This document shows, piece by piece, positions 2,092 through 19,492 of a stretch of 20,828 bases of DNA. The stretch is from a virus. The notes beneath the pieces were generated by a model. That model saw only the letters and a list, made by a program, of their open reading frames with translations, was not told the DNA's origin and ran no database searches. The number at the start of each line of letters is the position of its first letter. Position 1 is the first letter of the stretch. Where the stretch lies: IMG/VR virus record IMGVR_UViG_3300029906_000004, positions 82,176 to 103,003 of that record. The stretch is one strand, 5' to 3'. The position numbers were made by a program, and so were the translations under genes.

Positions 2092-3555
2092 ATGGATAAT
2101 AATATTCTTAATAATCTACAACTTTATAAAGGCAAATGGTTTTCGGATCTGATTGATACCGCTAAGATCTCGATTGCCTCACAACAGCGCCCTTACGAAG
2201 TAGCAACAGTTTTATCTTATGTATTTGGTACTAAGGACAATGGTTATAGCACGTCTTTGGATATGCTGACTGGTGGTCTCGGTAATGTAATGACGATTGA
2301 TCAGCCTTCGTTCGAGTGGAACGTGATCATTGATACCGATCGTGCTGTTACTATTCGTGATGCTAAGTGGAATGGCACAACCGTTACTTCTACGTCTACG
2401 GCAGGTTTGGGTAATACTCCTATAATGCTCTGGCTGGAAGATAACTGGTTTGCATCTGGTGCTATTCTGGAATTCGACAACAAGGACTTCCAGGTACGTG
2501 TATCTGGTGCTCCTTATCAGGATGGTAATCTCTGGGTTTATACTTGCTTCGTAGCAGATGGTAATCCTGCATCGTATATTCCTGCTGAATATTTGGAAGC
2601 TGGTAAACAAGTATCTCGTCTTGCTTCGGCATATGAGGAGTACAGTGAAGAAGGTGATATCCTGAACTATAACACTCACTTTAAGATGCGTAACTATCTT
2701 ACCACGATTCGTATTAACTACGATATTACGGGTTCTGCTTACTCCACTGTAATGGCTATTAAGCTGAAGGATCCTGCAACCGGTAAGAGTTCGTATTTGT
2801 GGGCTGATTATCAGGAATGGAAAGCTCTTCGTGAATGGTATAAGCGTTGTGAGCGTATGCTTGTTTATATGAAGTCTAATGTTAATAAGGATGGTAGCTG
2901 TAACCTGAAAGGTACAAACGGTCGTCCTGTTTACATTGGTGCTGGTCTGCTGGAGCAGATTGCTCCGTCTAACCGTCGTACTTATACTAAGTTGACTGCT
3001 GAACTGTTGGAAGACTTCTTGTTCGATCTGTCTTATAACTGTCTGGGTACTAACGAACGTAAGTTTGTTGCTCTGACTGGTGAAATGGGTATGCGTGAAT
3101 TCGACCGTGTACTGAAGGAGAAGGTTGCTAACATGAACTTGATCGATACTGTATTTGTAACTGGTTCTGGTGATAGCTTGACTTTCGGTGGTCAGTTCAA
3201 GACTTATAAGATGACGAATGGTATTGAGTTGACGTTGAAGTATTTCCCGCTGTATGACGATATCGTTTACAATCGTGAATTGCATCCGGTAACCGGTAAG
3301 CCGAAGGAATCTTATCGTATGACGTTCTTGGATCTTGGTCGTCGTGACGGTGAAGCTAACATTGTTAAGGTAGTACGTAAGGATCGTGAATTCGTTACTT
3401 GGTACACTGGTGGTGCTGTAGCTCCGTCTGGTTATGCTCATTCTAAGGATACTTTAAGATCGAACGGTAAGGATGGCTATACTGTGTACTTCCTCGGAGA
3501 AATGGGATTGCTCGTGAGGGATCCTCGTGCGTGTGGGGAATTAGTATTAGCGTAA
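2092..3555 (+). CDS. Major capsid protein, crAss-like, 487 aa
   Basis: Size and sequence resemble Crassvirales MCP (YEEYSEEG, MRNYLTTIR, GAGLLEQI, FVALTGEMGMREFD, DPRACGEL). Codon bias is strongly high-expression (CGT, GGT, CTG) with no in-frame TAG, and synteny fits. Confidence 0.92.
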   Translation: MDNNILNNLQLYKGKWFSDLIDTAKISIASQQRPYEVATVLSYVFGTKDNGYSTSLDMLTGGLGNVMTIDQPSFEWNVIIDTDRAVTIRDAKWNGTTVTSTSTAGLGNTPIMLWLEDNWFASGAILEFDNKDFQVRVSGAPYQDGNLWVYTCFVADGNPASYIPAEYLEAGKQVSRLASAYEEYSEEGDILNYNTHFKMRNYLTTIRINYDITGSAYSTVMAIKLKDPATGKSSYLWADYQEWKALREWYKRCERMLVYMKSNVNKDGSCNLKGTNGRPVYIGAGLLEQIAPSNRRTYTKLTAELLEDFLFDLSYNCLGTNERKFVALTGEMGMREFDRVLKEKVANMNLIDTVFVTGSGDSLTFGGQFKTYKMTNGIELTLKYFPLYDDIVYNRELHPVTGKPKESYRMTFLDLGRRDGEANIVKVVRKDREFVTWYTGGAVAPSGYAHSKDTLRSNGKDGYTVYFLGEMGLLVRDPRACGELVLA

Positions 3556-3647: not shown

Positions 3648-4637
3648 ATGATGAGATCATACGATGTTTATAAGATAACAAATAAGATTAACAATAAAGT
3701 ATACATTGGAATTACAAGTAAAGGGATTAGTGCTCGGTGGAAGGAGCATCTCTGGAATGCCGAGCACGGATGTCCTTTCAAACTTCATAACGCTTTACGC
3801 AAATACGGTAAAGAAAACTTTACTATTGAACTAATAGACTTCTGTAATAGTTGGGAAGAGCTTACCGAAAAAGAAAAGTACTATATAGCACAATATAAGT
3901 CTACTGAAGACGAATTTGGTTACAACCTCACTGAAGGTGGTGATGGTACATTTGGTAGACTTCACTCTGAAGAAACTAAAGAAAAGATCAGACAAAAAGC
4001 TATAGGTAGAGAAGTAAGTGATGAAACTAGACAGAAATTATCTGAAGCAGGTAAAGTAAGAACAGAAGGTAGAGACGCCTACTGGTCGTCTGGCAATATT
4101 GGAAGCTCTCGTAGAAAACCGATACTTCAATATACTAAAGAAGGTAACTTCATTAGAGAGTTTGAAGGAGTAAATCTAGCATCTAAAGAAACTGGCATTG
4201 GAGTAACAAATATAGTTTCAGCTTTAAAACATAGGAATATAGTTGGATCTAAAAAGAATCCTTATATCTGGGTTTACAAAGAAGAGTATCCTGACGTTCC
4301 TGCTACAGTTCCTGCTAGTTTATTTGCCAAAGATCCTGATTGGAAACCGACTATTAGTGAAGAATGCCGTAAAGCTAATCTAGAAAATAGAAAAAACAAG
4401 AAGCTTACAGATAAACAAAGACAATCTGCTATTGAAAACGGAATGAAAACCGCTAAGTCTATTTGTCAATACAACAAAGAAGGCAATTTGATAGCTACTT
4501 ATCCTAGTATAATAGAAGCTAGTAGAGCTACCGGGTGTGACCGTAGAGGAATACAAAGACAGTTACAAAATCCTGTAGATCCCTCTAATGGTAGAGCTTG
4601 GAATAATGCAAAGTTTATCTGGAAGTATGCTAACTGA
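3648..4637 (+). CDS. Free-standing GIY-YIG homing endonuclease with NUMOD3- and NUMOD1-like DNA-binding repeats, 329 aa
   Basis: N-terminal VYKITNKINNKVYIG...RW..H...E...GYN fits the GIY-YIG catalytic domain. HSEETKEKIRQKAIGR and VSDETRQKLSEA are NUMOD3-like. Two (I/C)xQYxKEGNxIxx(F/Y)...ASxxTG repeats are NUMOD1-like. No TAG; ends at TGA. Confidence 0.92.
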   Translation: MMRSYDVYKITNKINNKVYIGITSKGISARWKEHLWNAEHGCPFKLHNALRKYGKENFTIELIDFCNSWEELTEKEKYYIAQYKSTEDEFGYNLTEGGDGTFGRLHSEETKEKIRQKAIGREVSDETRQKLSEAGKVRTEGRDAYWSSGNIGSSRRKPILQYTKEGNFIREFEGVNLASKETGIGVTNIVSALKHRNIVGSKKNPYIWVYKEEYPDVPATVPASLFAKDPDWKPTISEECRKANLENRKNKKLTDKQRQSAIENGMKTAKSICQYNKEGNLIATYPSIIEASRATGCDRRGIQRQLQNPVDPSNGRAWNNAKFIWKYAN

Positions 4638-5414: not shown

Positions 5415-6182
5415 ATGACAGTATCTGAAATACATAAAGCATTTAAAGTATAGATGGATAAGAACGCTGAGGCTGTAGCTTTTGGTGGATGCCCTGCATT
5501 CTTACCTGAAGAAATAGATCTGTTTTTAAACTAGGCTTATATAGAAGTTATCAGTAATAAGTTTACAGGAGCTAATCCTTCACAAACTCCATTTGAAGGA
5601 AGCGTAAAACGTATTGCAGACTTAGAGAGTCTTGTTAAAACAGATACAGGTGTTTCTGTATCCCTAGATTCTAGTTCTAATGTACTTACTTTAGAAGATT
5701 ACTATAATACGGATGGTACATATCATAGAATGTTTTATGTAACTGTTGTTTTACATGGTAATTTTTAGCGTATAATGGGCATTACTTAGTCTACTTCAGA
5801 TGGAGTTGAACAAGTAGACAAAGTAATAACTAATGATATACCTGATGGTGCTACATGTGTTCTCATGGATCACGATACTGCTAGAAAGTACTTAAAGACC
5901 TATAACAATGATCCTTGGATAGATACTCCTATATCTACATTAGAAAATAACAGATTAAAGATATATATTGACACGTATAAGATGTTAGGACCTTATACAA
6001 TCGATATAACCTACGTTAAGTACCCTTAGGTAATAGATAATACTCAACCTAATACAGAAATAGATGAAGTACCAGATAGAGTATTATATGAAGTAATCAA
6101 TAGAGCAACAGTAATAGCATTAGAGAATATTGAATCTAAACGAGCAGAATCTAAATTACAAATTAATAATATACAAGAATAA
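5415..6182 (+). CDS. Tail ring (head-tail connector) protein, 255 aa, TAG=Gln
   Basis: Open from ATG 5415 to TAA 6180-6182 with 5 TAGs. Motifs AFLPEEIDLFLN*A, FEGSVKRIADL and YVKYP are typical of crAss ring proteins. Confidence 0.75.
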
Positions 6183-7303
6183 TGAATAGTAGAGAAATGT
6201 AGATGGAATTTGAACGTCGCATTACTTTGATGAATCCTGCATTTGAGCTTAAAGAGAAGCTTACATCAGATACGATATTCTCATTCCTAAACGCATATAC
6301 CGAAAGATTTGTACGAAACAATTATCTACAAGAAGACCAAGTTGGAGATGGCACTAGAGCTTAGAAGAAGAACGCAGACGCCTTAAAAGGTCTTATTGTA
6401 AGAACTTTGTTGTCTAAGAATCAAAAAGACGTATAGAATACAGACGTTAATTCCGAAAAATTCGTGCTCCCTGCCGATTACTTCCTATATATTAGAAGTA
6501 ATAGTAGAGTAAGCGCTACTTACAAAGGTTTAGTGCAGAATATTGCTCATGCTGATATCAATAATTCACAGGCAACTGACTATTTCGTTAATGAACAAGT
6601 AAGTGGTAGTGGAACTAACACCTCAACTTGGAGGATTGTTTACGATGGTGACACATTTAATATGATATATGTAAGCGGAAGCGCTTTATCTCCAAGTGCG
6701 ATCGATAACATCAAATTCTATGATAATTCTAATGTAGTAAAAACTGTAAATAATTACAACACAGAATTAACAGGAGTAGCTGACGGTACTATTACAAAAT
6801 TATCTTTTCAGTTAGCCAGTTTAAAGTTTACCAAATTTGAACTATGTAAAGATAGTAGCGTAGTATCCACTTTAACCGTAAAGTCTTATTAGGAGTTTTC
6901 AAATCTAGATGTAGATGACGATGACTACTTAGATTTTTTATAGACTGTACCAAATAAAACAATTAGAGAGGATGACGTTGAAAAAATTATTTCTACTTAT
7001 TATAATAGAGCTATTCTTCGTTCACCTTATGTAGTATTAAATTCTGGCAGAGCTGATGATACTACCGATAATACGTATTTAAATGTTATTCATGACACTT
7101 ATACAGTAATAGAAGCAGTTGATTTAGTATATTATAGAAAGCCTAAACGTTTTGACGTAATCGGTGTAGATGGTGTGAATGTATTAGATCATTGTGAATT
7201 GCCTGAAAACGTACACATGGAATTAGTAGAAGGTGCAGTAGAGATGTTTATTACAGAAGCCAAGTATCGTCTTAATATGAATTCTAACAATAGACAGCAA
7301 TAA
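6182..7303 (+). CDS. Tail ring protein paralog with a ~130-aa insertion, 373 aa, TAG=Gln
   Basis: TAATG overlap start, includes track ORF 6464..6892, ends at TAA 7301-7303. Ring-like motifs LPADYFLYIRS, YYRKP and CELPENVHMELVEGAV are present. Confidence 0.75.
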
Positions 7304-8028
7304 TGAAGTTCATTCAACTATAGGAATCTTTTGAGTATGAGATAAATAAGTTAGATGATGGTTTAAATAAACCTAAGTCATCTGATACAGAATACTGGCT
7401 TAATGTAGCTTTAGACAAATTCTGGAAAACTAGATATTCTGCTAATAATTATAAGGTAGAAGGGTTTGAACAGACACAAAAACGTATCGATGATCTTCGT
7501 ACTTTAGTAAAAGAGATTACCTATACGGATGATATAACTACTGTTAATAACTCATTATATACAGTTCAATTACCTACAGACTATGTAATACTATTAGGAG
7601 ATAAAGCTGGTATAGCTCCTGCTGATGGATATACAGATCCTTGTTGGGAATTAGATGAAGACGGTAATCCTGTAGTTCACTACTCTGATACAATAGAAGG
7701 ATAGATAGAGACAATTGACCGTATAAAAGAAAATTCTCTATCAGAATATCGCTTAAGATATACTAAAGCTAAACCTATTAGGTTAGTAATGAATGATACG
7801 GTATATCTGCATACTGATGGTAAATATAAAGTTGCAGTATATACTATGTAGTATTTACGTAAACCGGAGTATATAAATATCCATAAAGATCCGTTTGCGG
7901 AATACACAGATATGCCTGAGCATACTCAAATTGAAATAGTTAAGTTAGCGGCTTAGCTATATCTGCAAAATCAGGCAGATCCTAGGTACTCTTCTTATAC
8001 GTAGGAAGTACTACCTAGTATGGAATAA
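7303..8028 (+). CDS. Tail ring protein paralog, 241 aa, TAG=Gln
   Basis: TAATG overlap start, ends at TAA 8026-8028. GFEQTQKRIDDLRTLV, LPTDY, YLRKP and MPEHTQIEIVKLA parallel motifs in the two preceding genes. Confidence 0.78.
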
Positions 8029-8128: not shown

Positions 8129-9112
8129 ATGATTCAATCTGTCCACAATGTAATGATTGGTAAGAAAGCTCCTGCTTCTTACTCTAATATTGACGCTTTA
8201 GCAGACGGTGATGTTGCTCTGTTTGACCAGAATCGTCAGCTGTTAACGACTGCTGCTTTGGCAGCTAAAGCTACGTCTCTCTATGTAGGCGTTTGCAAAG
8301 GTAAAGTAAAGGTAGTTAACCCTACTTCTGGTGCTCTGGAAGATAAGGCTAATATTGAGTTCTCTCAGGAGATTCAGAAAGCTGGTAAACCTTCTGCAGT
8401 AATTGGTGAGTATACTGCTCCTGTTCAGCAGAAGATTACTATTACGCTTACTTCTGCTACAATCGTAGCTGGTAATCGTTATGTTCTTCGTATTGTTTAT
8501 AAGGACTTGAGTGATGTTAAGTTCCAATTTACTCACAGCTACGAAGTATACGCTTCTTCTACTACAGCTTCTGATTTGGTAACTGCTCTTGCTAACAAGA
8601 TTAATGCTCATAAAGGTCGTCGTGTTGAAGCTCAGGCTTCTGCCGGTGTACTTACGTTGACTGCTTTAGAAAAGGATGACAATGAGGGTGTATATTCTAT
8701 TAACGAATATAGCGTAGTAGATATGGAAGCATTCTTGTACACTACTATCCCTGGTGCTCTTCTAAGCAATCAGCCTGAATCCGTACCCGGTGCAACGATT
8801 GCTAAGACTGTAGGCACTCCTGGTAAGGGTTATTGGAAGCAGGTACGTGATACTGAGTTCCGTAACAGTCCGTATAAAGGTCATGTATTTATTGATGCAT
8901 ATCCTGAAATCCGTCAGGAAATGCGTACGGTAGTTAATGCTCAGTACGATTATGCTATCATTGAATGTGATAACATGTACTTGTCTAACGATAACCAGTA
9001 CATTAAGACTACTCCTATGACGGTTGAGGTCTACTGTCCTGATATGAAAGACAGCATTGTTGACCTTGGTATTCAGTCCTTTATTGCAGGTTCTGAAGTA
9101 ACGGGTGACTAA
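8129..9112 (+). CDS. Auxiliary capsid protein (phiCrAss001 gp36-like), 327 aa
   Basis: Intact TAG-free ORF with the same high-expression codon bias as MCP, followed by a terminator. Size and position after the ring genes match the crAss auxiliary capsid gene (synteny inference). Confidence 0.72.
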   Translation: MIQSVHNVMIGKKAPASYSNIDALADGDVALFDQNRQLLTTAALAAKATSLYVGVCKGKVKVVNPTSGALEDKANIEFSQEIQKAGKPSAVIGEYTAPVQQKITITLTSATIVAGNRYVLRIVYKDLSDVKFQFTHSYEVYASSTTASDLVTALANKINAHKGRRVEAQASAGVLTLTALEKDDNEGVYSINEYSVVDMEAFLYTTIPGALLSNQPESVPGATIAKTVGTPGKGYWKQVRDTEFRNSPYKGHVFIDAYPEIRQEMRTVVNAQYDYAIIECDNMYLSNDNQYIKTTPMTVEVYCPDMKDSIVDLGIQSFIAGSEVTGD

Positions 9113-9186: not shown

Positions 9187-9732
9187 ATGAATATAGAGAA
9201 AATAACATTCGTCGATGATATTATTACTATTACGCTAAGCGAAGCTACTGCAGTTAGTAAAGTATGGATAGATACTTTAGATAATGTGGATAATCTATAC
9301 GCTGAAGATGATGATTCTCATTCATATACTATTACGCAAGGTGGAACGCCTGTATTAAGCGTTTAGATCGATTCTAAGACACTTTCGCCGGAGTTAGATA
9401 CTAGCGCCTTCATGGTAACTATAAATGGCGTATAGGGCTTCTATTACGACGAGGAAGAGCTTTATTATAAAGAAATAGATTTACTTACTAAATTCTGTAG
9501 TACCTGTTTAGATAAACATTAGAAGGAACGTATTGTATTATTTATGACGAAGTATCATCTAATGCAATACGCTATAGAAAATAATTTAGTAGAGGACCAA
9601 ATGAATTACTACATAGACTTAGCTAGAATGCTTAATATAGACTTTAAATATAATGCTAGATTAAACTGTTTGTGTAGTGGTAAGTGTAAAAGAGTAGTTA
9701 AATGCTGTAACGGTTGCTGTGCTTTATGTTAA
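9187..9732 (+). CDS. Putative tail hub-like protein with a Cys-rich C-terminus, 181 aa, TAG=Gln
   Basis: ATG 9187 is in frame with track ORF 9544..9732 through 3 TAGs. It contains CSTC and the terminal CLCSGKCKRVVKCCNGCCALC. The hub call rests on synteny only. Confidence 0.62.
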
Positions 9733-10602: not shown

Positions 10603-13600
10603 ATGAATATAAATAGAGACAAACATAACAAATATGTAGCTGGATGGACTCCCAATATAACTACGTCTACTGGATCTGAAACAAGTAGTGGATCTACTAC
10701 TTCTACTATCATATACGTTGGTGGTGGAGGAAGTAGTAGTGGAGGAGATTCTGGTACTGTTACGCAATAGAATACTTTCATGTATTATGTAATAAGTGAT
10801 GGTACTAACTCTATTACTTAGACTGCTACAATACCTACAGATACTGCTATATTAACTTTAATAGGAAAGAACGGAGTAACTGTTACCGCTAGTTAGGAAA
10901 AGAGTATACCTGAAACAGAGTTTGTCTCTACAGGTACTAATACTGGTACTTATAAGATTTCATACAATAAATTAGTAACTACTCCAGATCCTACAGAAGA
11001 AGTACCTGAACCTCAACCAGTTACTACATATCCTGTTACTATTACTTATGTGAGCGGTGATAAGATACTAACTTCATCCTTTGATACTCTTACTTTATAT
11101 AATACAGTTGATGAAACAGAGTAGGTAGTAGCTACTTATAATCAGACTTAGTTATAGATAGACGGAGATACTACAGGTATTAACTCTATTGTAGCAGATG
11201 CAAACAATACTGTATTTTCTAGAATAACTCTATCTATTACAGCAGAGGAATAGACTACTATAGTACTAGACTTTGCAGTAACTGTGAATCAGTAGGACAT
11301 ATTATATGTAGAAGGTACTTAGACCGAATAGTACTGGAAACTAGATGATGACGGTAATCTATACACTACTTATAATGCTTACTCTACATAGGAGCTATCT
11401 GCATACGGTATGGGAGAATCTGGTGGTACTCCTACTACAGGAGCAGAATACCTATATCAATTAAAGGACGTATCAGACGCAGTATAGACTCCTATAGATA
11501 AAGGTATACTTCAATATAATGCAGCAACTAGTCAATGGGAAGTAACAGATGGTTCTAATATTACTCCAGACCTAACAGGTTACGCCAAAGAAGATTGGGT
11601 TACTCAGCAAATTACTAATTAGATAAATATACTAAAAGGTAATGCTCCTGAGAATATGGATACACTTGGTGAGATAGCTGGAGTAATATCGTCATTGAGT
11701 GATAAAGTAACCTCTTTAGAAGTATTATTAGAGTGGTTTGAATGGGATGATACTAATGATGCCATTAAAGCTCTATTTGACTTATACGGTGTAGGTGAAA
11801 TATCTGCATACGGTTATAATACTCAGGAGCAACCTTCTGGTGCACAGTACCTAAATGATCTATTAGACGTAACGATCAGTAATCCTACAAATAATTAGAT
11901 ACTCATCTATAATGGTTCACAATGGGTAAATTCCGCATTACCTGAATCAGGTTTAAATGAATCAGAATTAGCATAGTATCTGACAGAACATAACTATATA
12001 CAATCTTCTGATTTAAATCAATATGCAACGATCACTTAGCTAAATCAAGCGATAACGGATCTTATAGGAGGAGCTCCAGCCGAACTAGATACGTTAGGAG
12101 AAATAGCTACTGTAATATAGAGTTTACAGTAGTTATTAGACTGGTTCTCGTTTGTAGACGGTAAGATTAGAGCTAATTACGACTTATGGAGTGTGGGTGA
12201 AGTAAGCGCATATGGTGCTGGAGAATCTGGTGAAACTGGTGGTAAGAATTATTTACATGAACTAGAAGATGTACTATTAGGTGACGATCTTGCATCAGGG
12301 CAATTACTACAATACAATGGTACATACTGGGTAAACATAGATAAAGACGAAGTAGGTTTAAATGAAACAGAGTTAGCTAATTACCTTACTTAGAATAATT
12401 ATCTGCAACAAGGAGATGTTACTTGGTCTAACTTATCAGGTAAACCTAGTACTTTTAATACGACCATAAACTAGATAAATGACTTGAATTCTAGTTGGGA
12501 CTCTTTACTGTTAAATTCTCCTACAGACTATGTAACTAGATGGCCGGCATTCTCAGAAGTAACAGATAAACCCACTACTTTAGCTGGTTACGGTATTACA
12601 GATGCGTATACTAAAACAGAAACTGATGATAGATATGTAAATATCACTGGTGACACGATGACTGGTAATCTTACTTTACCAGCTTTGATTGCCAATGATT
12701 ATATACGTATAGGTAGTACTGCTAGATTAGAGTATGATAGTACTAATAATGCTATTAAAGTAACTAATGCTTCTGGTGGCGTTGTTAATTTCTACGCTAC
12801 TGGAGAAGTATCTGCTTACGGTGCAGGTTCAGGATCCACTATAAGCGGGTATTTAAACGATTTACAGGACGTAACAATTAGTAATGTAACTACAGGTTAG
12901 GCATTAATATATAATGGTTCATAGTGGGTAAATCAAACAATATAGCAAGGATTAGATGAAAATGCATTAGAAGACTATTTAAACGATAACGGGTATCTAC
13001 CTAGTGACGCAACAGTTAATGAAGGTATTGCTGGTAAATTAGCATATTATGTTAATGCCACTACTATAGATGATTATAATTCCACAGTAGGTTCTAATAC
13101 TAAATTCATATACTTAAACGATGGAGTACCTACAGCTAGTAATGGTACAGTAGGTAGTACGCTAACTCCTGTATATCTGAATGCTGGGACGTTTACTACT
13201 TCAGATAAATACAGAGTTAGAGGTCTTAGTGGCGTGTATACCGGAAGCGGGGGAATAGAATATCCGTCGTATTTTACCGATTATGGATTAGCCGTTAATA
13301 TGATGAATACTCCTGTAACTTATTGTGATGTGATATACATTAATGGTTACAATAACGGAGGAGCAGATGTACCCTACATTAATGCTATAGCTTTCTAGAA
13401 GACCGCTGACGCACATGGAGAAGTATATCACGCTCGTGGAGATTATGACGGTGATTCATGGGGTACTTGGTATAGGTTTGTAGATTCGTATAATTATACC
13501 TCGATAATAACTAAATTGGGTACTTCTACTGTTGGCAGTGGTACTAAATTGTGGTATTTAAATGCCGGTACTCCTACTAACTCTAGTTCTACTATAGGAG

Positions 13601-15015
13601 GTCATTATACTCCTGTTTGGTTAAATAGCGGTACAATAACTGCTAGTACTCAGTAGTATATGGTTGATAAAGGAGTACTTAAAGATTACTGGACTAATTG
13701 GAATAGTGCTTTAACCGCAGGTATGTATTCGTTAAGTGAGTGGGGAACTAATGGACCTTCAAATGCAGGTTATCAATACGGAACAGTTGCTATATTCAAA
13801 TCTGGTACTAGTTCGTATGGTGGAGCTATATCATAGCTTTACATGCCTCATTCAAATGCTGAAGCAGGAGTGTATGCCGCATGGAGAACTACATATGGAG
13901 TAAGTAGTTCTAAATGGACTAACTGGCATTATCTGCTAGATACTGGTAACTACGCATACTTCCTGAATAACTATTATGTGAAGAAGTCGGGTGATAATAT
14001 GACTGGAGATTTATACACTTCTGCTAGTTTCACTGCAAATAATGGTTTGTATCTCAGTAATAGCCACGGTAGATTCATATGGGACTCTGGAACATCAGCT
14101 GCTTGGTTACAGGGGGCTAGTAGTGGCAATATGTATCTATCTGGTTTAAACGCTACTACTTTATCATCTTTAAGGCTTTATACTACATCTATACAAACAA
14201 ATTTAGGTGTCCTTTATAAGTATTTGGGTTATAGTACTGACGGAGTATAGAACTATATTGTAGTATCATATGCCTATAATAGTGGTTCTGTTATTAACGG
14301 TAGTGGTTGTGTAGGCTCTTTTATATTAACTCGAGGAAGTGCTGCTGAATGGAACGGTAAAGTTGAGATACATGTCAATGCCGGCGGTCAATATAATACA
14401 AACGTATTTGGTTATTACAAATTCGGTTCCGGATGGACAGTTGAAGGTATGTTTAAAATATATTACAGTGGTTCATATTATTTAGCTATTAGAACTGCAG
14501 CATCTTCTTAGTATAGATGTTACTTTAACGGAGTTACTACAAACAGTTTCTCTCCATTTATAATAAGAGCTTCTGCTGCTAGTAGTGTTGCTGCTATATC
14601 CGGTACAGCAAATGGTACTATAGCTGCGTCTGGAAATATAACCGCATAGGGAGAGATAACAGCGTATGCCGCTTCAGACATTAGATTAAAGACTGATATT
14701 ACTCATCTATCTGCAATAGACGTTGTTCGTAGAATGAACGTAGTTGAATATAATTGGAATGAAACTGCGTTGCAGCTAAAAGCTGATAAGACTGTACATG
14801 GATACGGATTAATTGCGCAAGAGCTAGAATCTCTAGTACCTGAAGCAATTAACTATAATATGTTTAATGCAGATTATCTGGGTATAGATTACACTAAACT
14901 AGTACCATTTGCATTATCAGCTATATAGGAAGTCGATGATGAAGTAACTAAATTAAAGAAAAGAGTAAAGAAACTAGAAGTTAGATTAAGTAAATATGAA
15001 CGTATTATTGACTGA
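10603..15015 (+). CDS. Long tail fibre with C-terminal peptidase S74 intramolecular chaperone, 1470 aa, TAG=Gln
   Basis: One frame with no TAA/TGA from ATG 10603 to TGA 15013-15015, absorbing five track ORFs. It carries GE(I/V)SAYG repeats, APxxxDTLGEIA motifs and two knob-like domains. The S74 domain shows SDIRLK (S at 14674), GLIAQE, GIDYTKLVP, AI*E and a terminal coiled coil. Confidence 0.9.
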
Positions 15016-15157
15016 TAGAGAACTACTTGAATAGATCTACTTATTACTAGTATAGATTTATAATAAAGTAAAAGAGATAGATAATGATGAAAAGTAGTTT
15101 GGTATGAATTTACTTGCAAATCTAGTAAGTACTAAATCAACAAGAGTATAGTCATGA
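14996..15157 (+). CDS. Small hypothetical protein, 53 aa, TAG=Gln
   Basis: MNVLLTDRELLE*IYLLLV*IYNKVKEIDNDEK*FGMNLLANLVSTKSTRV*S. It overlaps the fibre stop, and its TGA overlaps the peptidase ATG (ATGA 15154-15157). Confidence 0.65.
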
Positions 15158-16614
15158 AGTATTTTACATTTAAAGAGATGATTTAGTCTAATACAGCTAA
15201 AGCTAGAGGTATAGAGAACATACCAGATTGGGATGATATATATAGGCTGTAGAGGCTAATAGAGACGATTCTAGACCCTTTGAGGGAATGGTACGGTTCG
15301 CCTATTATAGTCAACTCAGGGTATCGCTGTGAGGCTTTAAATAAGGCTGTAGGAGGTGTTTCTACAAGTTATCATTGTTTTGATAGAAATACAGAAATAT
15401 TAACAAATAACGGATGGAGAACTTACAAAACAATCAAACCTTACGATAAAGTTCTATCTATGAATTTAGATACGCAGCTATTAGAGTTTGTAGATATAGA
15501 TTCGATATAGATACAGCCTTATAAAGGAAATTTGATATATGCCGATAATAAACATGTATAGTTCGCTGTTACAGACGAACATAGGATGGTAGTCAGAAGT
15601 CCGGCTCACAAATATGTTAGAAAAACAGACAGAGTATTAACTGAAGCAGAACAAAAATATTTTGATTCGCTAAAGACAGATAATGATAAGTTTCATATAG
15701 AGTTATCTAAAGATATTATTGGAAAGAGACGAATATTTAAAACAGCGGGTATATCTGCTCACACCAACGAATATAATGTTGATATATTAAGAATGTGTAT
15801 GGCAGTTATTTCTGACGGTTTTATCTAGAAGAAAAAGGGAATAGGTAATCCTTAGATAGCTTTTAACTTAAAGAAAGAAAGAGATAAACAAGAATTAGAA
15901 GATATATTAAATAGACTAGGTTGGAAGTATAATAAACATTATAGTAGTTCTCATGAAAGACATGGAATCAAAGGAGTATATCATTATTACATAAGCTATT
16001 CTGAATGTGCAGAGATATTTGAAATAATCGGTATGACCAAAAAAATACCTCGTTGGTTTTTAACGTTAAAGCCAGAAATACTTAGACAACTAGTAATAAG
16101 TTATGCTAAGTTTGATGGTTCGTTCGATAAACGTGAGGGTAATAGCGGAATCTCCATCTTTTCTATAGACGAACACAACATAGATATGCTTCAAGCAATG
16201 TGTGTATTATGTGGTATGAGGTGTGTCAAGAAGGAGCTCAAAAATTATAAGATAACTTTTGGTGATAAACAATATGTATTAAAAGAGTTCTTCATATTAT
16301 ATATTACTCAAAACACAGATGAGAGTAGAATGCAAGAGAATCTATATCACAGATTCTTTTACAATTCTACTGTGTGGTGTGTAAATAATAAAAATACCAC
16401 TCTCGTGACCCGTCGTAACGGAAAAGTATCTATATAGGGTAACTGCCACGGTTATGCTGCTGATATTACTGCTGGTAATAAGACTGAGAATAAGAAGTTA
16501 TTTAATTATATAAAAGATAATCTACCGTTTACGGAATTAGGCTGGGAAGGTAATGGTACATGGATACATATTGCGTGGACTGGTAGTAACGATAAAGAAA
16601 TATTTTACACATGA
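15154..16614 (+). CDS. M15-family Zn peptidase (putative endolysin) interrupted by an intein; 486-aa precursor, 130-aa spliced product
   Basis: N-extein MKYFTFKEM...LDPLREWYGSPIIVNSGYRCEALNKAVGGVSTSYH and C-extein CHGYAADI...WIHIAW. Splicing restores the M15 SxHxxGxAxD motif plus the downstream WxH Zn ligand. Seven TAGs are read through. Confidence 0.88.
15376..16443 (+). mobile_element. Intein with LAGLIDADG homing endonuclease domain, 356 aa
   Basis: Block A CFDRNTEILTNNGW, block B VTDEH (TxxH), LAGLIDADG-like MAVISDG and SYAKFDG, block F/G VWCVNNKNTTLVTRRNGKVSI*GN with +1 Cys at 16444. Confidence 0.92.
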
Positions 16615-18161
16615 TTACATTATAGAATATGATATTCGCTAATCCGTAGGCATACTAGGTATTCCCTAATATGGTTAATCCATATAATACCGGTACTACA
16701 GAATTAGCTAGGTATACAGGTCATTTAGCGATTACAGATAACAACGGTAATACTTATGACTTTACTGGTACTAGTACTATAGACTTTACCTCTATATCTG
16801 GTCTAGTTACTATAGACAATATAACAGATAGAGGTAGTGTACGGTTAGGTAGATGGTAGATACCTCAGTCTATAGTTATTACTAATGATATCACTATTAC
16901 AGTTACTATTATAGCAGAAGTATCATCAGATGGTGCTACTATTACTCCCCAATACGAAGTAAAGTATAATACATACCATAATGGAGAATTAACTGAATTT
17001 ACTGTAATTACTCCAGATAATGTTACATTATAGTCTAATGTAGAATGGATTACTATCAGTAATAATCAAATAGTAGTAGCAGCTAATACTAATACAGAAG
17101 CTAGACAAGGTCAAGTAACAATACAAGTATCATATCAAGAGTATAATACTAGTGCTAATTATAATATAATACAAGCTGGTTATAGTATAGAAGATGGTAT
17201 TATGGATGCTATGGTATTATGGTATGATTTAGCTAAACAAGGTGCTACTAATGAATCTATGGCTACTACCCCTACGTTAATAGACCATAGTGGCAATGGG
17301 CATGATGCTACGTGCTATAACTTTGCGTGGAGTGGGATGAGCGGGATTGGGGGATTTGATTATCCATTATTTCCAAATGTGTTCTCTTCGGATGGTTTTT
17401 GCAATATTCCTAACAATAGATATTATACACGTTTAACCGACGTATCTGATACGACTTACTCAATAAAGTTTAAAGTATCTAAGATGAGTAATGGAAAGAC
17501 CTTATACGTTAGAAAAGTACTTAACGATGGGGTTTCTACTTCACTTCTATCTATTATAACGGAAAATGGTGAATACTCGTTTACCGTCGATTCAGGCTAT
17601 TTAGCAGTATATCCTTCGGAGAGAAGTAATCCAGAAGGAGTCTATAATGCGGATATAGATATTCAATTAGTCCCTCTCTACCCCAACGCCCTTGTATCTG
17701 ACGGTGTTGACGACTACTGCTTTGTAGAAGGACTGCCGTTGCTGACTAAGGAAAGAGGATATACGGTGATTGCGAAGAGAAAGTGGTTAGATGAGGACAA
17801 TGAAGGTAATTCGTCACTTATAACAAAAGCATCAACGACATCTGGAGTAGATGGAGCGTTTATGTTTGAATGTAAACATCAAAATGCAACACAGAAAATT
17901 ACAAGGAGTTTTGGTGGAACATTGATTCTTGACAATTTTTATACTGACGATATAACTTATCAAATATCTAATTCTTATAATTCGACATCGATACCGCAAC
18001 ACACTTATACTGATACAAATAAAATGGTAATGTTTAGATTTTCTACTAATGCAAATGAATATTATGGCGAATTTGCTCTTTATTCTTTATTACTCTTCAA
18101 CCGCGACCTTACTCCCGAAGAAATAGAATGGGTTAAAACAAACTTAATAGAAGCAGAATAA
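16611..18161 (+). CDS. BACON-domain plus LamG/ConA-like domain protein (putative adhesin or fibre), 516 aa, TAG=Gln
   Basis: ATGA overlap start, joins track ORFs 16671..16859 and 17202..18161. BACON-like SNVEWITI...VAANTNTEARQGQVTI...IIQAG at ~17034-17180. LamG-like LWYD..., DHSGNGHDA, SDGVDDY and FNRDLTPEEI follow. Confidence 0.78.
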
Positions 18162-18430
18162 TGAGATACATAGTAATGCCAATAGAGGATGCTCAAGTAG
18201 TCTTCACTGGAGAAGAACTATCTACAATGAGAAAATCTGTAGATAATACAGAAGTAATAGTACATGAAGAAACTCTAATACGTAAAAGAAATTCTATGGG
18301 ATTAACTACTCTACCTTCAGAAGATACAGGAATAATAGAGTGGACATATCCTACATACGACTATAATAGTAGTGAGCTTGACACTCTACTTTCAAGCGAT
18401 AGATGGTTAACTAAAGATGATAATATTTAA
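18161..18430 (+). CDS. Hypothetical protein coupled to the LamG gene, 89 aa
   Basis: Intact ORF with TAATG overlap, ends at TAA. Confidence 0.75.
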   Translation: MRYIVMPIEDAQVVFTGEELSTMRKSVDNTEVIVHEETLIRKRNSMGLTTLPSEDTGIIEWTYPTYDYNSSELDTLLSSDRWLTKDDNI

Positions 18431-19024: not shown

Positions 19025-19492
19025 ATGGAAAATACAGAAGTAAAAGAAGAACAGAAAGTATTGAAAGCTAGTCGATTTGAAGTAGAACAACAGCTTAACC
19101 AGTATATCGGTAATATTAAAGTAGAAGGTCTATCAAGTGATGCTAAGTTATCTTTAGTTAAGCTAAAGATTGAGCTATCTAAAATCGTAGAAGATATTAA
19201 TGAGTTTAGAAAGAAGACTCTTGATAGTATTGAGAAACCTGAAAACTATGAAGAGTTGAAAGAGGCTTCACAGAAAGAGGATGCTACTGAAGAAGATAAA
19301 GCTGCATTTAAGAAAGTAGAAGATGAATTCAATAATAAATTCGTAGAGATAGCTTTACCTTACTTTAACGAAGTAGTTGAAATACCTTTTGACTTTATTA
19401 GTGAGAAAGACTTCTATGCATTAGTACAACACAATGATGTAAATGTAGTCTTTGGGTATGAGTATATCTATAATAAGTTAGTTAAGAAATAA
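19025..19492 (+). CDS. Hypothetical acidic helical protein, 155 aa
   Basis: Intact, TAG-free and E/K-rich; TAATG-coupled to the next gene. Confidence 0.78.
   Translation: MENTEVKEEQKVLKASRFEVEQQLNQYIGNIKVEGLSSDAKLSLVKLKIELSKIVEDINEFRKKTLDSIEKPENYEELKEASQKEDATEEDKAAFKKVEDEFNNKFVEIALPYFNEVVEIPFDFISEKDFYALVQHNDVNVVFGYEYIYNKLVKK

Follow-up and report, generated by a model that had tools for sequence, protein, structure and literature searches.

Does the tail barrel of some crAss-like phages carry a domain with a relative in the tail fibre, and what might such a domain do there? The question is raised by a 20,828-nt stretch of phage DNA (the window), the final 20.8 kb of a 103-kb single-contig genome, in which the middle of three tandem ring genes is considerably longer than its neighbours. 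Crassvirales are the most abundant human gut phages, and most of them are without a cultured host or a known receptor. To our knowledge, the only structural atlas is that of ΦcrAss001, and the tail barrel is plain in the part of that atlas consulted here.

Reading TAG as glutamine was found to give a clean gene array across the window. The table 11 and table 4 readings were rejected, as both break the genes into short ORFs and TAG=Gln is needed. The phage is a Suoliviridae-type crAss-like phage in which TAG is read as Gln. In GenBank, the closest phages are cr4_1, cr114_1, and cr125_1 of the Suoliviridae, and the gene order of cr125_1 (Aurodevirus, Suoliviridae) is identical to that of the window. 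As in the Crassvirales structural module, several paralogous ring genes are present, with the capsid gene upstream and paralogs on both sides of the long ring gene; three further genes separate the 241-aa ring gene from the 1470-aa tail fibre gene. The genes needed for the argument are the following:

2092-3555: Crassvirus major capsid protein, upstream of the ring genes (PF23898 Crass_capsid, E 4.5e-219)
3648-4637: GIY-YIG homing endonuclease with NUMOD1/NUMOD3, directly after the major capsid gene
Between the homing endonuclease and the three tandem ring genes: a 250-aa protein
5415..6182, + strand: ring paralog without the insert (P0003, 255 aa); hhalign against ring profile A3 91.7%, E 7.8e-7; weak SU10_adaptor Pfam match
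6182..7303, + strand: predicted tail-barrel ring protein of the R3/R4/R5 type, host of the insert (P0001, 373 aa), with five in-frame TAG=Gln codons
7303..8028, + strand: ring paralog without the insert (P0004, 241 aa); hhalign against A3 96.8%, E 2.2e-10
10603..15015, + strand: long tail fibre (P0002, 1470 aa) with 30 TAG=Gln codons and a C-terminal Peptidase_S74 intramolecular chaperone (PF13884, E 3e-12; PHROG tail fibre families)

An annotated, shorter homing endonuclease is present at the same spot in cr125_1 (L042 6834-7505). The genes at 2092-3555, 3648-4637, 8129-9112, 18161-18430, and 19025-19492 have no in-frame TAG at all, and their neighbours carry 2-30 TAG=Gln codons. The absence of TAG from these genes suggests that the recoded codon is avoided by the most abundant virion genes and by the homing endonuclease. 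The GC content of the capsid gene and of 8129-9112 is 0.40, compared with ~0.33.

With TAG read as Gln, the lengths that had been noted in the first-pass annotation, 373 aa for the middle ring paralog against 255 and 241 aa for its neighbours, were confirmed. The two-domain fold of crAss ring 3/4 proteins, consisting of conserved α-helices and a β-sandwich, is present in the 373-aa protein. A profile built from 68 of its homologs matched ΦcrAss001 gp34 (ring 4/5, 7qoj_E) with an E-value of 9.3e-7 and gp35 (R3) with an E-value of 0.0035. The protein alone scored 15 bits against PF25710 (CrAss_Ring_3_4), for which the gathering score is 27, and P0004 matched the same family at E 2.7e-5, below the gathering score. 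On sequence homology, the middle of the three tandem genes encodes a tail-barrel ring protein of the R3/R4/R5 type. In ΦcrAss001, the fibre-docking hub is built on R1 and R2, with R3-R5 making up the distal barrel on the muzzle side (PMC10172136). The ΦcrAss001 rings R3 (gp35) and R4/R5 (gp34; PDB 7QOJ) are 230-238 aa long and have a short loop, compared with 135 extra residues in the present protein, and no mention of decorated crAss ring proteins was found in the part of the atlas consulted (PMC10172136).

The extra residues, which had been placed at about 6530-6930, were found at nt 6542-6943, close to the earlier estimate, and contain the following elements:

6542..6943, + strand: optional insertion, residues ~121-254, two flexible acidic linkers included; absent from homologs 75-89% identical in the flanks
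6569..6901, + strand: folded β-sandwich domain of the ring insert as modelled, residues 130-240, about 10 strands
6611..6643, + strand: signature loop and strand GTNTSTWRIVY, residues 144-154, common to the fibre copy and conserved in both families; modelled as coil, then strand 149-154

The insert lies between an invariant YKG motif (residue ~115) and the sequence VPNKTIREDD (residue ~257). Among 781 ring homologs, most of which are 225-266 aa long, the ~135-residue block was found in one clade only (P0005-P0018, 368-381 aa), and relatives of 242-266 aa, whose flanks are 75-89% identical, have just 10-25 residues between the two motifs. In a library of 50%-identity representatives, most matches were split into two stretches that skip residues ~118-254. 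The insert was also absent from all 23 GenBank records and from all 40 IMG/VR loci returned by a scan with the ring alignment, none of which held the fibre domain either. Since the block is missing from such close relatives, it is an optional insertion, as the first-pass annotation had supposed, and not a universal part of the ring family; a segment of ~135 residues is inserted in a loop of the ring β-domain. In the structural model, an all-β domain of its own is seen at residues 130-240 (pLDDT 81-95), and the linkers at residues 125-127 and 242-250 have pLDDT values below 50. An intein or homing element was rejected as the identity of the block, which is a β-sandwich, has no endonuclease or splicing match, and is translated with the TAG=Gln usage of the phage.

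The proposed counterpart of the insert lies in the N-terminal region of the tail fibre, in which three elements are relevant:

10603..10662, + strand: conserved N-terminal ~20 residues of the fibre; alignment columns 1-9 nearly invariant, 50-100% identity across classes
10906..11298, + strand: predicted fibre copy of the domain, residues 102-232, with a ~20-residue Pro/Glu-rich loop past the first strand pair (AF2, hhalign register, PDB neighbours)
10933..10965, + strand: signature GTNTGTYKISY, residues 111-121; S-T-G-T-N-T-G invariant in all fibre classes

Fibres of 871-2477 aa (P0125-P0144) that differ in their distal parts share 94-99% identity over the first ~260 residues, and the fibre has the classic organization of a constant base and a swappable tip. 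The shared domain therefore belongs to the constant, proximal part of the fibre. In the fibre alignment (A4), columns S60-G66, Y68, and Y72 are invariant. The N-terminal ~20 residues are likely a hub-docking peptide, by analogy to residues 1-26 of ΦcrAss001 gp22, which sit in the tail hub (PMC10172136). The distal part of one fibre homolog contains a T4 gp36-type domain (PF03903).

Whether the two segments are homologous was the central point. The resemblance had been proposed from strings covering ring residues 144-221 (nt 6611-6844) and fibre residues 111-210 (nt 10933-11232), and two Thr/Ser/Asn-rich β-regions could in principle look alike through composition or chance, the more so as the fold type is very common. 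Direct comparison of the two proteins would fit such a chance likeness. BLASTP returned a single 13-residue match (GTNT.T..I.Y, E 0.78), and Smith-Waterman alignments with shuffling gave p values of ~0.017 for the insert against fibre residues 1-260 and ~0.05 against the whole fibre; a z-score of 5.2 was obtained with the hand-picked segments, which makes for a biased and circular test. Pairwise alignment by itself is thus weak to marginal evidence for ring-fibre homology, and the pairwise shuffle check suggested in the first-pass annotation did not settle the matter, whereas profile comparison was decisive. When a profile of 15 ring inserts was aligned by hhalign to a profile of the fibre N-terminus, whose members are 44-99% identical to the fibre of the window, a probability of 97.3% was obtained (E 2e-11, score 72.2, 104 columns), with ring residues ~135-239 paired with fibre residues ~102-232. 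The composition-preserving controls scored at most 30, with maxima of 24 for column-shuffled and 30 for six-column block-shuffled profiles and 20 for the reversed profile. When all 718 six-frame ORFs of the genome were searched, the fibre was the sole match of the ring-insert HMM (E 1.5e-4; next 0.53), and the ring protein was, in turn, the sole match of the fibre HMM (E 7.9e-4; next 0.31). Three fibre classes, run separately, each matched the ring insert in the same register with probabilities of 87-97%. The invariant motifs of the two families also coincide, namely TGTNT.T, (I/V).Y, YVSG, (F/I)D.(I/L).(F/L)Y, VV.T, and F.(K/R)(F/I).L. Other β-rich inserts of the same loop, in P0176 and the ~60-aa inserts of P0059-P0109, scored only 9-13, the null level, against both domain profiles, and were rejected as diverged copies of the domain. 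With strand order and PDB neighbours in agreement as well (see below), a non-homologous origin of the likeness is regarded as highly improbable, and chance similarity is essentially excluded. As judged from profiles and models, the ring insert and the domain at fibre residues 102-232 are remotely homologous, with ~23-25% identity.

The AF2 model of fibre residues 50-300 is confident solely at residues ~102-227 (pLDDT 61-89), which is the segment aligned by hhalign. Both copies are modelled as separate all-β domains, and their strands correspond one for one in the same order. In a search of 48,161 PDB representatives, 18 rows for the ring model aligned to the insert alone, and 12 of the 18 recurred in the top 50 of the fibre model. 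The common neighbours include SOD-like chains (1pzs, 2wwn, 6flh, 1s4i, and 8imd), 3fbq, the VirB9-CTD chains 2n01 and 7o3j, the DUF3244 protein 3d33, and the SGBP-B chains 7k44, 5e7h, and 5e7g. The Cu,Zn-superoxide-dismutase-like, DUF3244, VirB9-CTD, and Bacteroides SGBP-B Ig-like domains are all Greek-key β-sandwiches of similar size, and the same chains were retrieved from both copies. The models suggest that the domain is a self-contained Greek-key/Ig-like β-sandwich carried on two flexible acidic linkers, and no superfamily is assigned. A SOD-type metal site was ruled out, as the translation has no histidine in ring residues 130-240.

Pfam searches with E-values up to 0.1 gave no match in ring residues 121-254 or fibre residues 1-1350, and the domain is not a member of the Pfam Ig-like families (Big_1/Big_2, I-set, FN3) by sequence. 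In PHROGs, no match was found for the ring protein and no family for the insert or the fibre N-terminus, and an ESM Atlas search with the insert gave no usable match. The domain is thus an unnamed family, without a Pfam or PHROG model, known from the ring and fibre architectures only. With its clear boundaries and signature motifs, it is a candidate for either database. Of the first-pass proposal that one mobile, possibly Ig-like domain decorates two virion proteins, the shared domain has held up, and the interpretation as a whole is partly supported.

The distribution of the domain was surveyed in several collections. No locus was obtained when IMG/VR was scanned with the fibre domain, a degenerate DNA motif search gave one chance match (L041), tblastn of GenBank phages with the fibre domain gave no match, and the domain was not found in a JGI metagenome scan. 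When longer proteins were searched with a combined two-sequence profile, the matches were confined to long fibres and rings that bear the insert, which is weak evidence. At ~10 IMG/VR loci with insert-less rings, a syntenic fibre is present, with homology from residue ~233 on and shorter N-terminal heads that are without the domain. Ring and fibre records were paired by the equal length in bp of their longest contigs, and on this inferred pairing the ring insert and the fibre domain occur together on five contigs of 102,992 (that of the window), 99,050, 101,331, 52,992, and 17,815 bp. By the same inferred pairing, an insert-less 243-aa ring is found with the class-C fibre domain on two contigs of 10,750 and 101,441 bp; for the 10,750-bp pairing, ring and fibre are each recorded on a single contig of that size. 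Because contigs with an insert-less ring and a fibre domain exist, the fibre copy appears to be older or more widespread, with the ring copy confined to one sub-lineage.

Among insert-bearing rings, mean identity is 93.3% in the flanks and 56.0% in the domain, which corresponds to a 6.6-fold higher divergence of the domain, whereas the fibre copy in the same lineage is 92-99% identical. This variation is spread evenly, with conservation of 0.70 in strands and 0.69 in loops, and no hypervariable binding face was found. A footprint of recent duplication or recombination was looked for and rejected, as there are no flanking repeats, no DNA common to the two copies, and no GC anomaly. The event was therefore not a recent duplication; the ring copy was either divergent already when acquired or changed fast once inserted. 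In the proposed sequence of events, a fibre-type domain would have been duplicated or transferred into a permissive ring loop, with fast divergence afterwards.

Unrelated insertions were observed in other crAss ring lineages, in the same loop and in three or more other loops of the β-domain. These are 60-170 residues long and occupy four or more loops in different lineages, lying after residue ~88 (P0241, P0258, and P0292), in loop 120-255 (P0176 and P0059-P0109), after residue ~287 (P0260, P0286, P0287, and P0296), and after residue ~330 (P0240 and P0224). The two kinds compared with the present domain, those of P0176 and P0059-P0109, are unrelated to it. Rings of the crAss R3/R4 type resemble an all-purpose scaffold for display. 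Between 7645-7669 and 11335-11359, a stretch of 25 nt with 88% identity encodes W(E/K)LD(E/D)DGN at residues ~115-122 of P0004, in the equivalent β-domain loop, and at fibre residues 245-252, just past the shared domain; this may be chance, or a second short motif common to ring and fibre.

The placement of the insert on the virion can be approached through the SU10, T7, and KP32 adaptors, in which the conduit is formed by a helix bundle and a β 'fibre dock' domain lies at the periphery; radially protruding loops of this domain grip the proximal fibre (PMC9509320). From homology to these adaptors, the four insertion-prone loops of the ring protein, which all belong to the β-domain, are expected to point outward, and the peripheral position of the related β-domains suggests that the insert would project radially from the distal barrel. 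By analogy to the known rings, 12 copies would be present per ring, or 24 if the protein, like gp34, makes up two rings, and the fibre copies would be located near the fibre base, close to the ring-borne copies. Most likely, the insert would act as an accessory, non-essential surface-binding module of low affinity and high avidity, with the host capsule, another surface polysaccharide, or mucus glycans as putative targets, and would help to keep the tail at the cell surface, a role that has been proposed for the Ig-like domains of other phage tails.

An adhesion module is favoured because an optional, tethered β-sandwich that occurs in two classes of virion protein, diverges fast, and sits on a scaffold with unrelated inserts fits what is seen for the accessory Ig-like domains of phage tails. 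Such domains are dispensable for assembly and are thought to bind surfaces weakly, and their loss can lower infection efficiency (PMC9022992). Like those domains (Big_1/Big_2, I-set, FN3; Fraser et al.), the ring insert is an optional β-sandwich of ~100 residues on a tail-conduit protein, absent from close orthologs, and the same type of domain is found on more than one class of virion protein, in this case ring and fibre; many exposed copies and a non-essential, probably adhesive function are presumed by analogy. Unlike them, it is not Big, I-set, or FN3 by sequence, its host is a crAss tail-barrel ring with the adaptor fold and not a tube protein, and it lies inside a loop instead of at the C-terminus, is not added by frameshifting, and is known from two host architectures. 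Surface display and an adhesive function are what we infer from this comparison. That the ring carries an optional, fibre-related domain as a surface-binding accessory is the best explanation overall, and is held with slightly better than even confidence; the proposal that the insert is an accessory adhesion module is about evenly poised.

The main rival explanation is that the insert braces the fibre. It would pair with the proximal domain of the fibre, or compete for the partner of that domain, and so tether or stow the proximal fibres on the distal barrel, much as the fibre-dock loops of the SU10/T7 adaptors do. β-Sandwich domains frequently pair homotypically, and the copy in the fibre belongs to its constant, proximal region, near the expected position of the barrel. 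All contigs inferred to have the ring insert also have the fibre domain, and the reverse is untrue, although this one-way co-occurrence comes from a single lineage and intragenomic duplication would explain it equally well. A β-domain of this scaffold class is the fibre dock in SU10, T7, and KP32, but the docks of the SU10 gp, T7 gp11, and KP32 are short loops that clamp the fibre coiled coil, whereas the ring insert is an entire domain in itself, with a relative in the fibre, and its contact with the fibre is hypothetical (PMC9509320). Co-evolving partners would not be expected to differ as these copies do, with the insert diverging 6.6 times faster than its scaffold and the fibre copy nearly constant. 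Fibres of ΦcrAss001 dock at the R1/R2 hub, not at R3-R5 (PMC10172136), and the same loop holds unrelated inserts in other lineages. Fibre bracing is considered unlikely on balance. A neutral passenger, that is, a domain-sized segment tolerated in a permissive surface loop and drifting under relaxed constraint, would account for close relatives that manage without the insert, for a divergence that is fast and evenly spread with neither a conserved nor a hypervariable face, and for a loop that tolerates unrelated inserts. However, at least 15 variants, down to 45% identity, have an intact reading frame and a confident fold, 18 positions are invariant with the signature motifs retained, and GTNT.T, YVSG, and F/I..L..Y are retained in both paralogous families, so that mere tolerance of the segment also seems improbable.

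A more far-reaching reading, rated as quite improbable, would give the barrel itself, in this crAss lineage, a part in adhesion or in organising the fibres. On the distal barrel, 12-24 fast-evolving, fibre-derived copies would either pair with their counterparts at the fibre bases, as a latch by which the fibres are stowed and released, or form a second receptor-binding layer that evolves independently of the fibre, with the ring scaffold as a general display platform. The results show that the barrel ring of some Suoliviridae-type phages bears a domain akin to a portion of the fibre, and that ring proteins across Crassvirales accept insertions at several loops. Ring genes, beside fibres, thus stand out as sites where host- or mucus-interaction modules may be exchanged. 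A known pattern, that of promiscuous accessory domains on phage virion proteins, now includes a further scaffold and a further family of domains, and no concept is overturned. Natural variants with and without the insert, on scaffolds up to 89% identical, offer an experimental handle.

Three other genes of the window are of interest in their own right. A 181-aa protein encoded at 9187-9732 has a very Cys-rich C-terminus (10 Cys in the final 22 residues) and no Pfam match; since the tail hub and ring proteins of ΦcrAss001 contain disulfide links, it may, by analogy, be a hub component. The product of 15154-16614, with a Peptidase_M15_3 N-terminus followed by a LAGLIDADG_3 domain, looks like an endolysin interrupted by an intein. 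Downstream of it, 16611-18161 encodes a 516-aa protein with a weak BACON-domain match (E 0.0018, below the cut-off), which is possibly a carbohydrate-binding tail protein.
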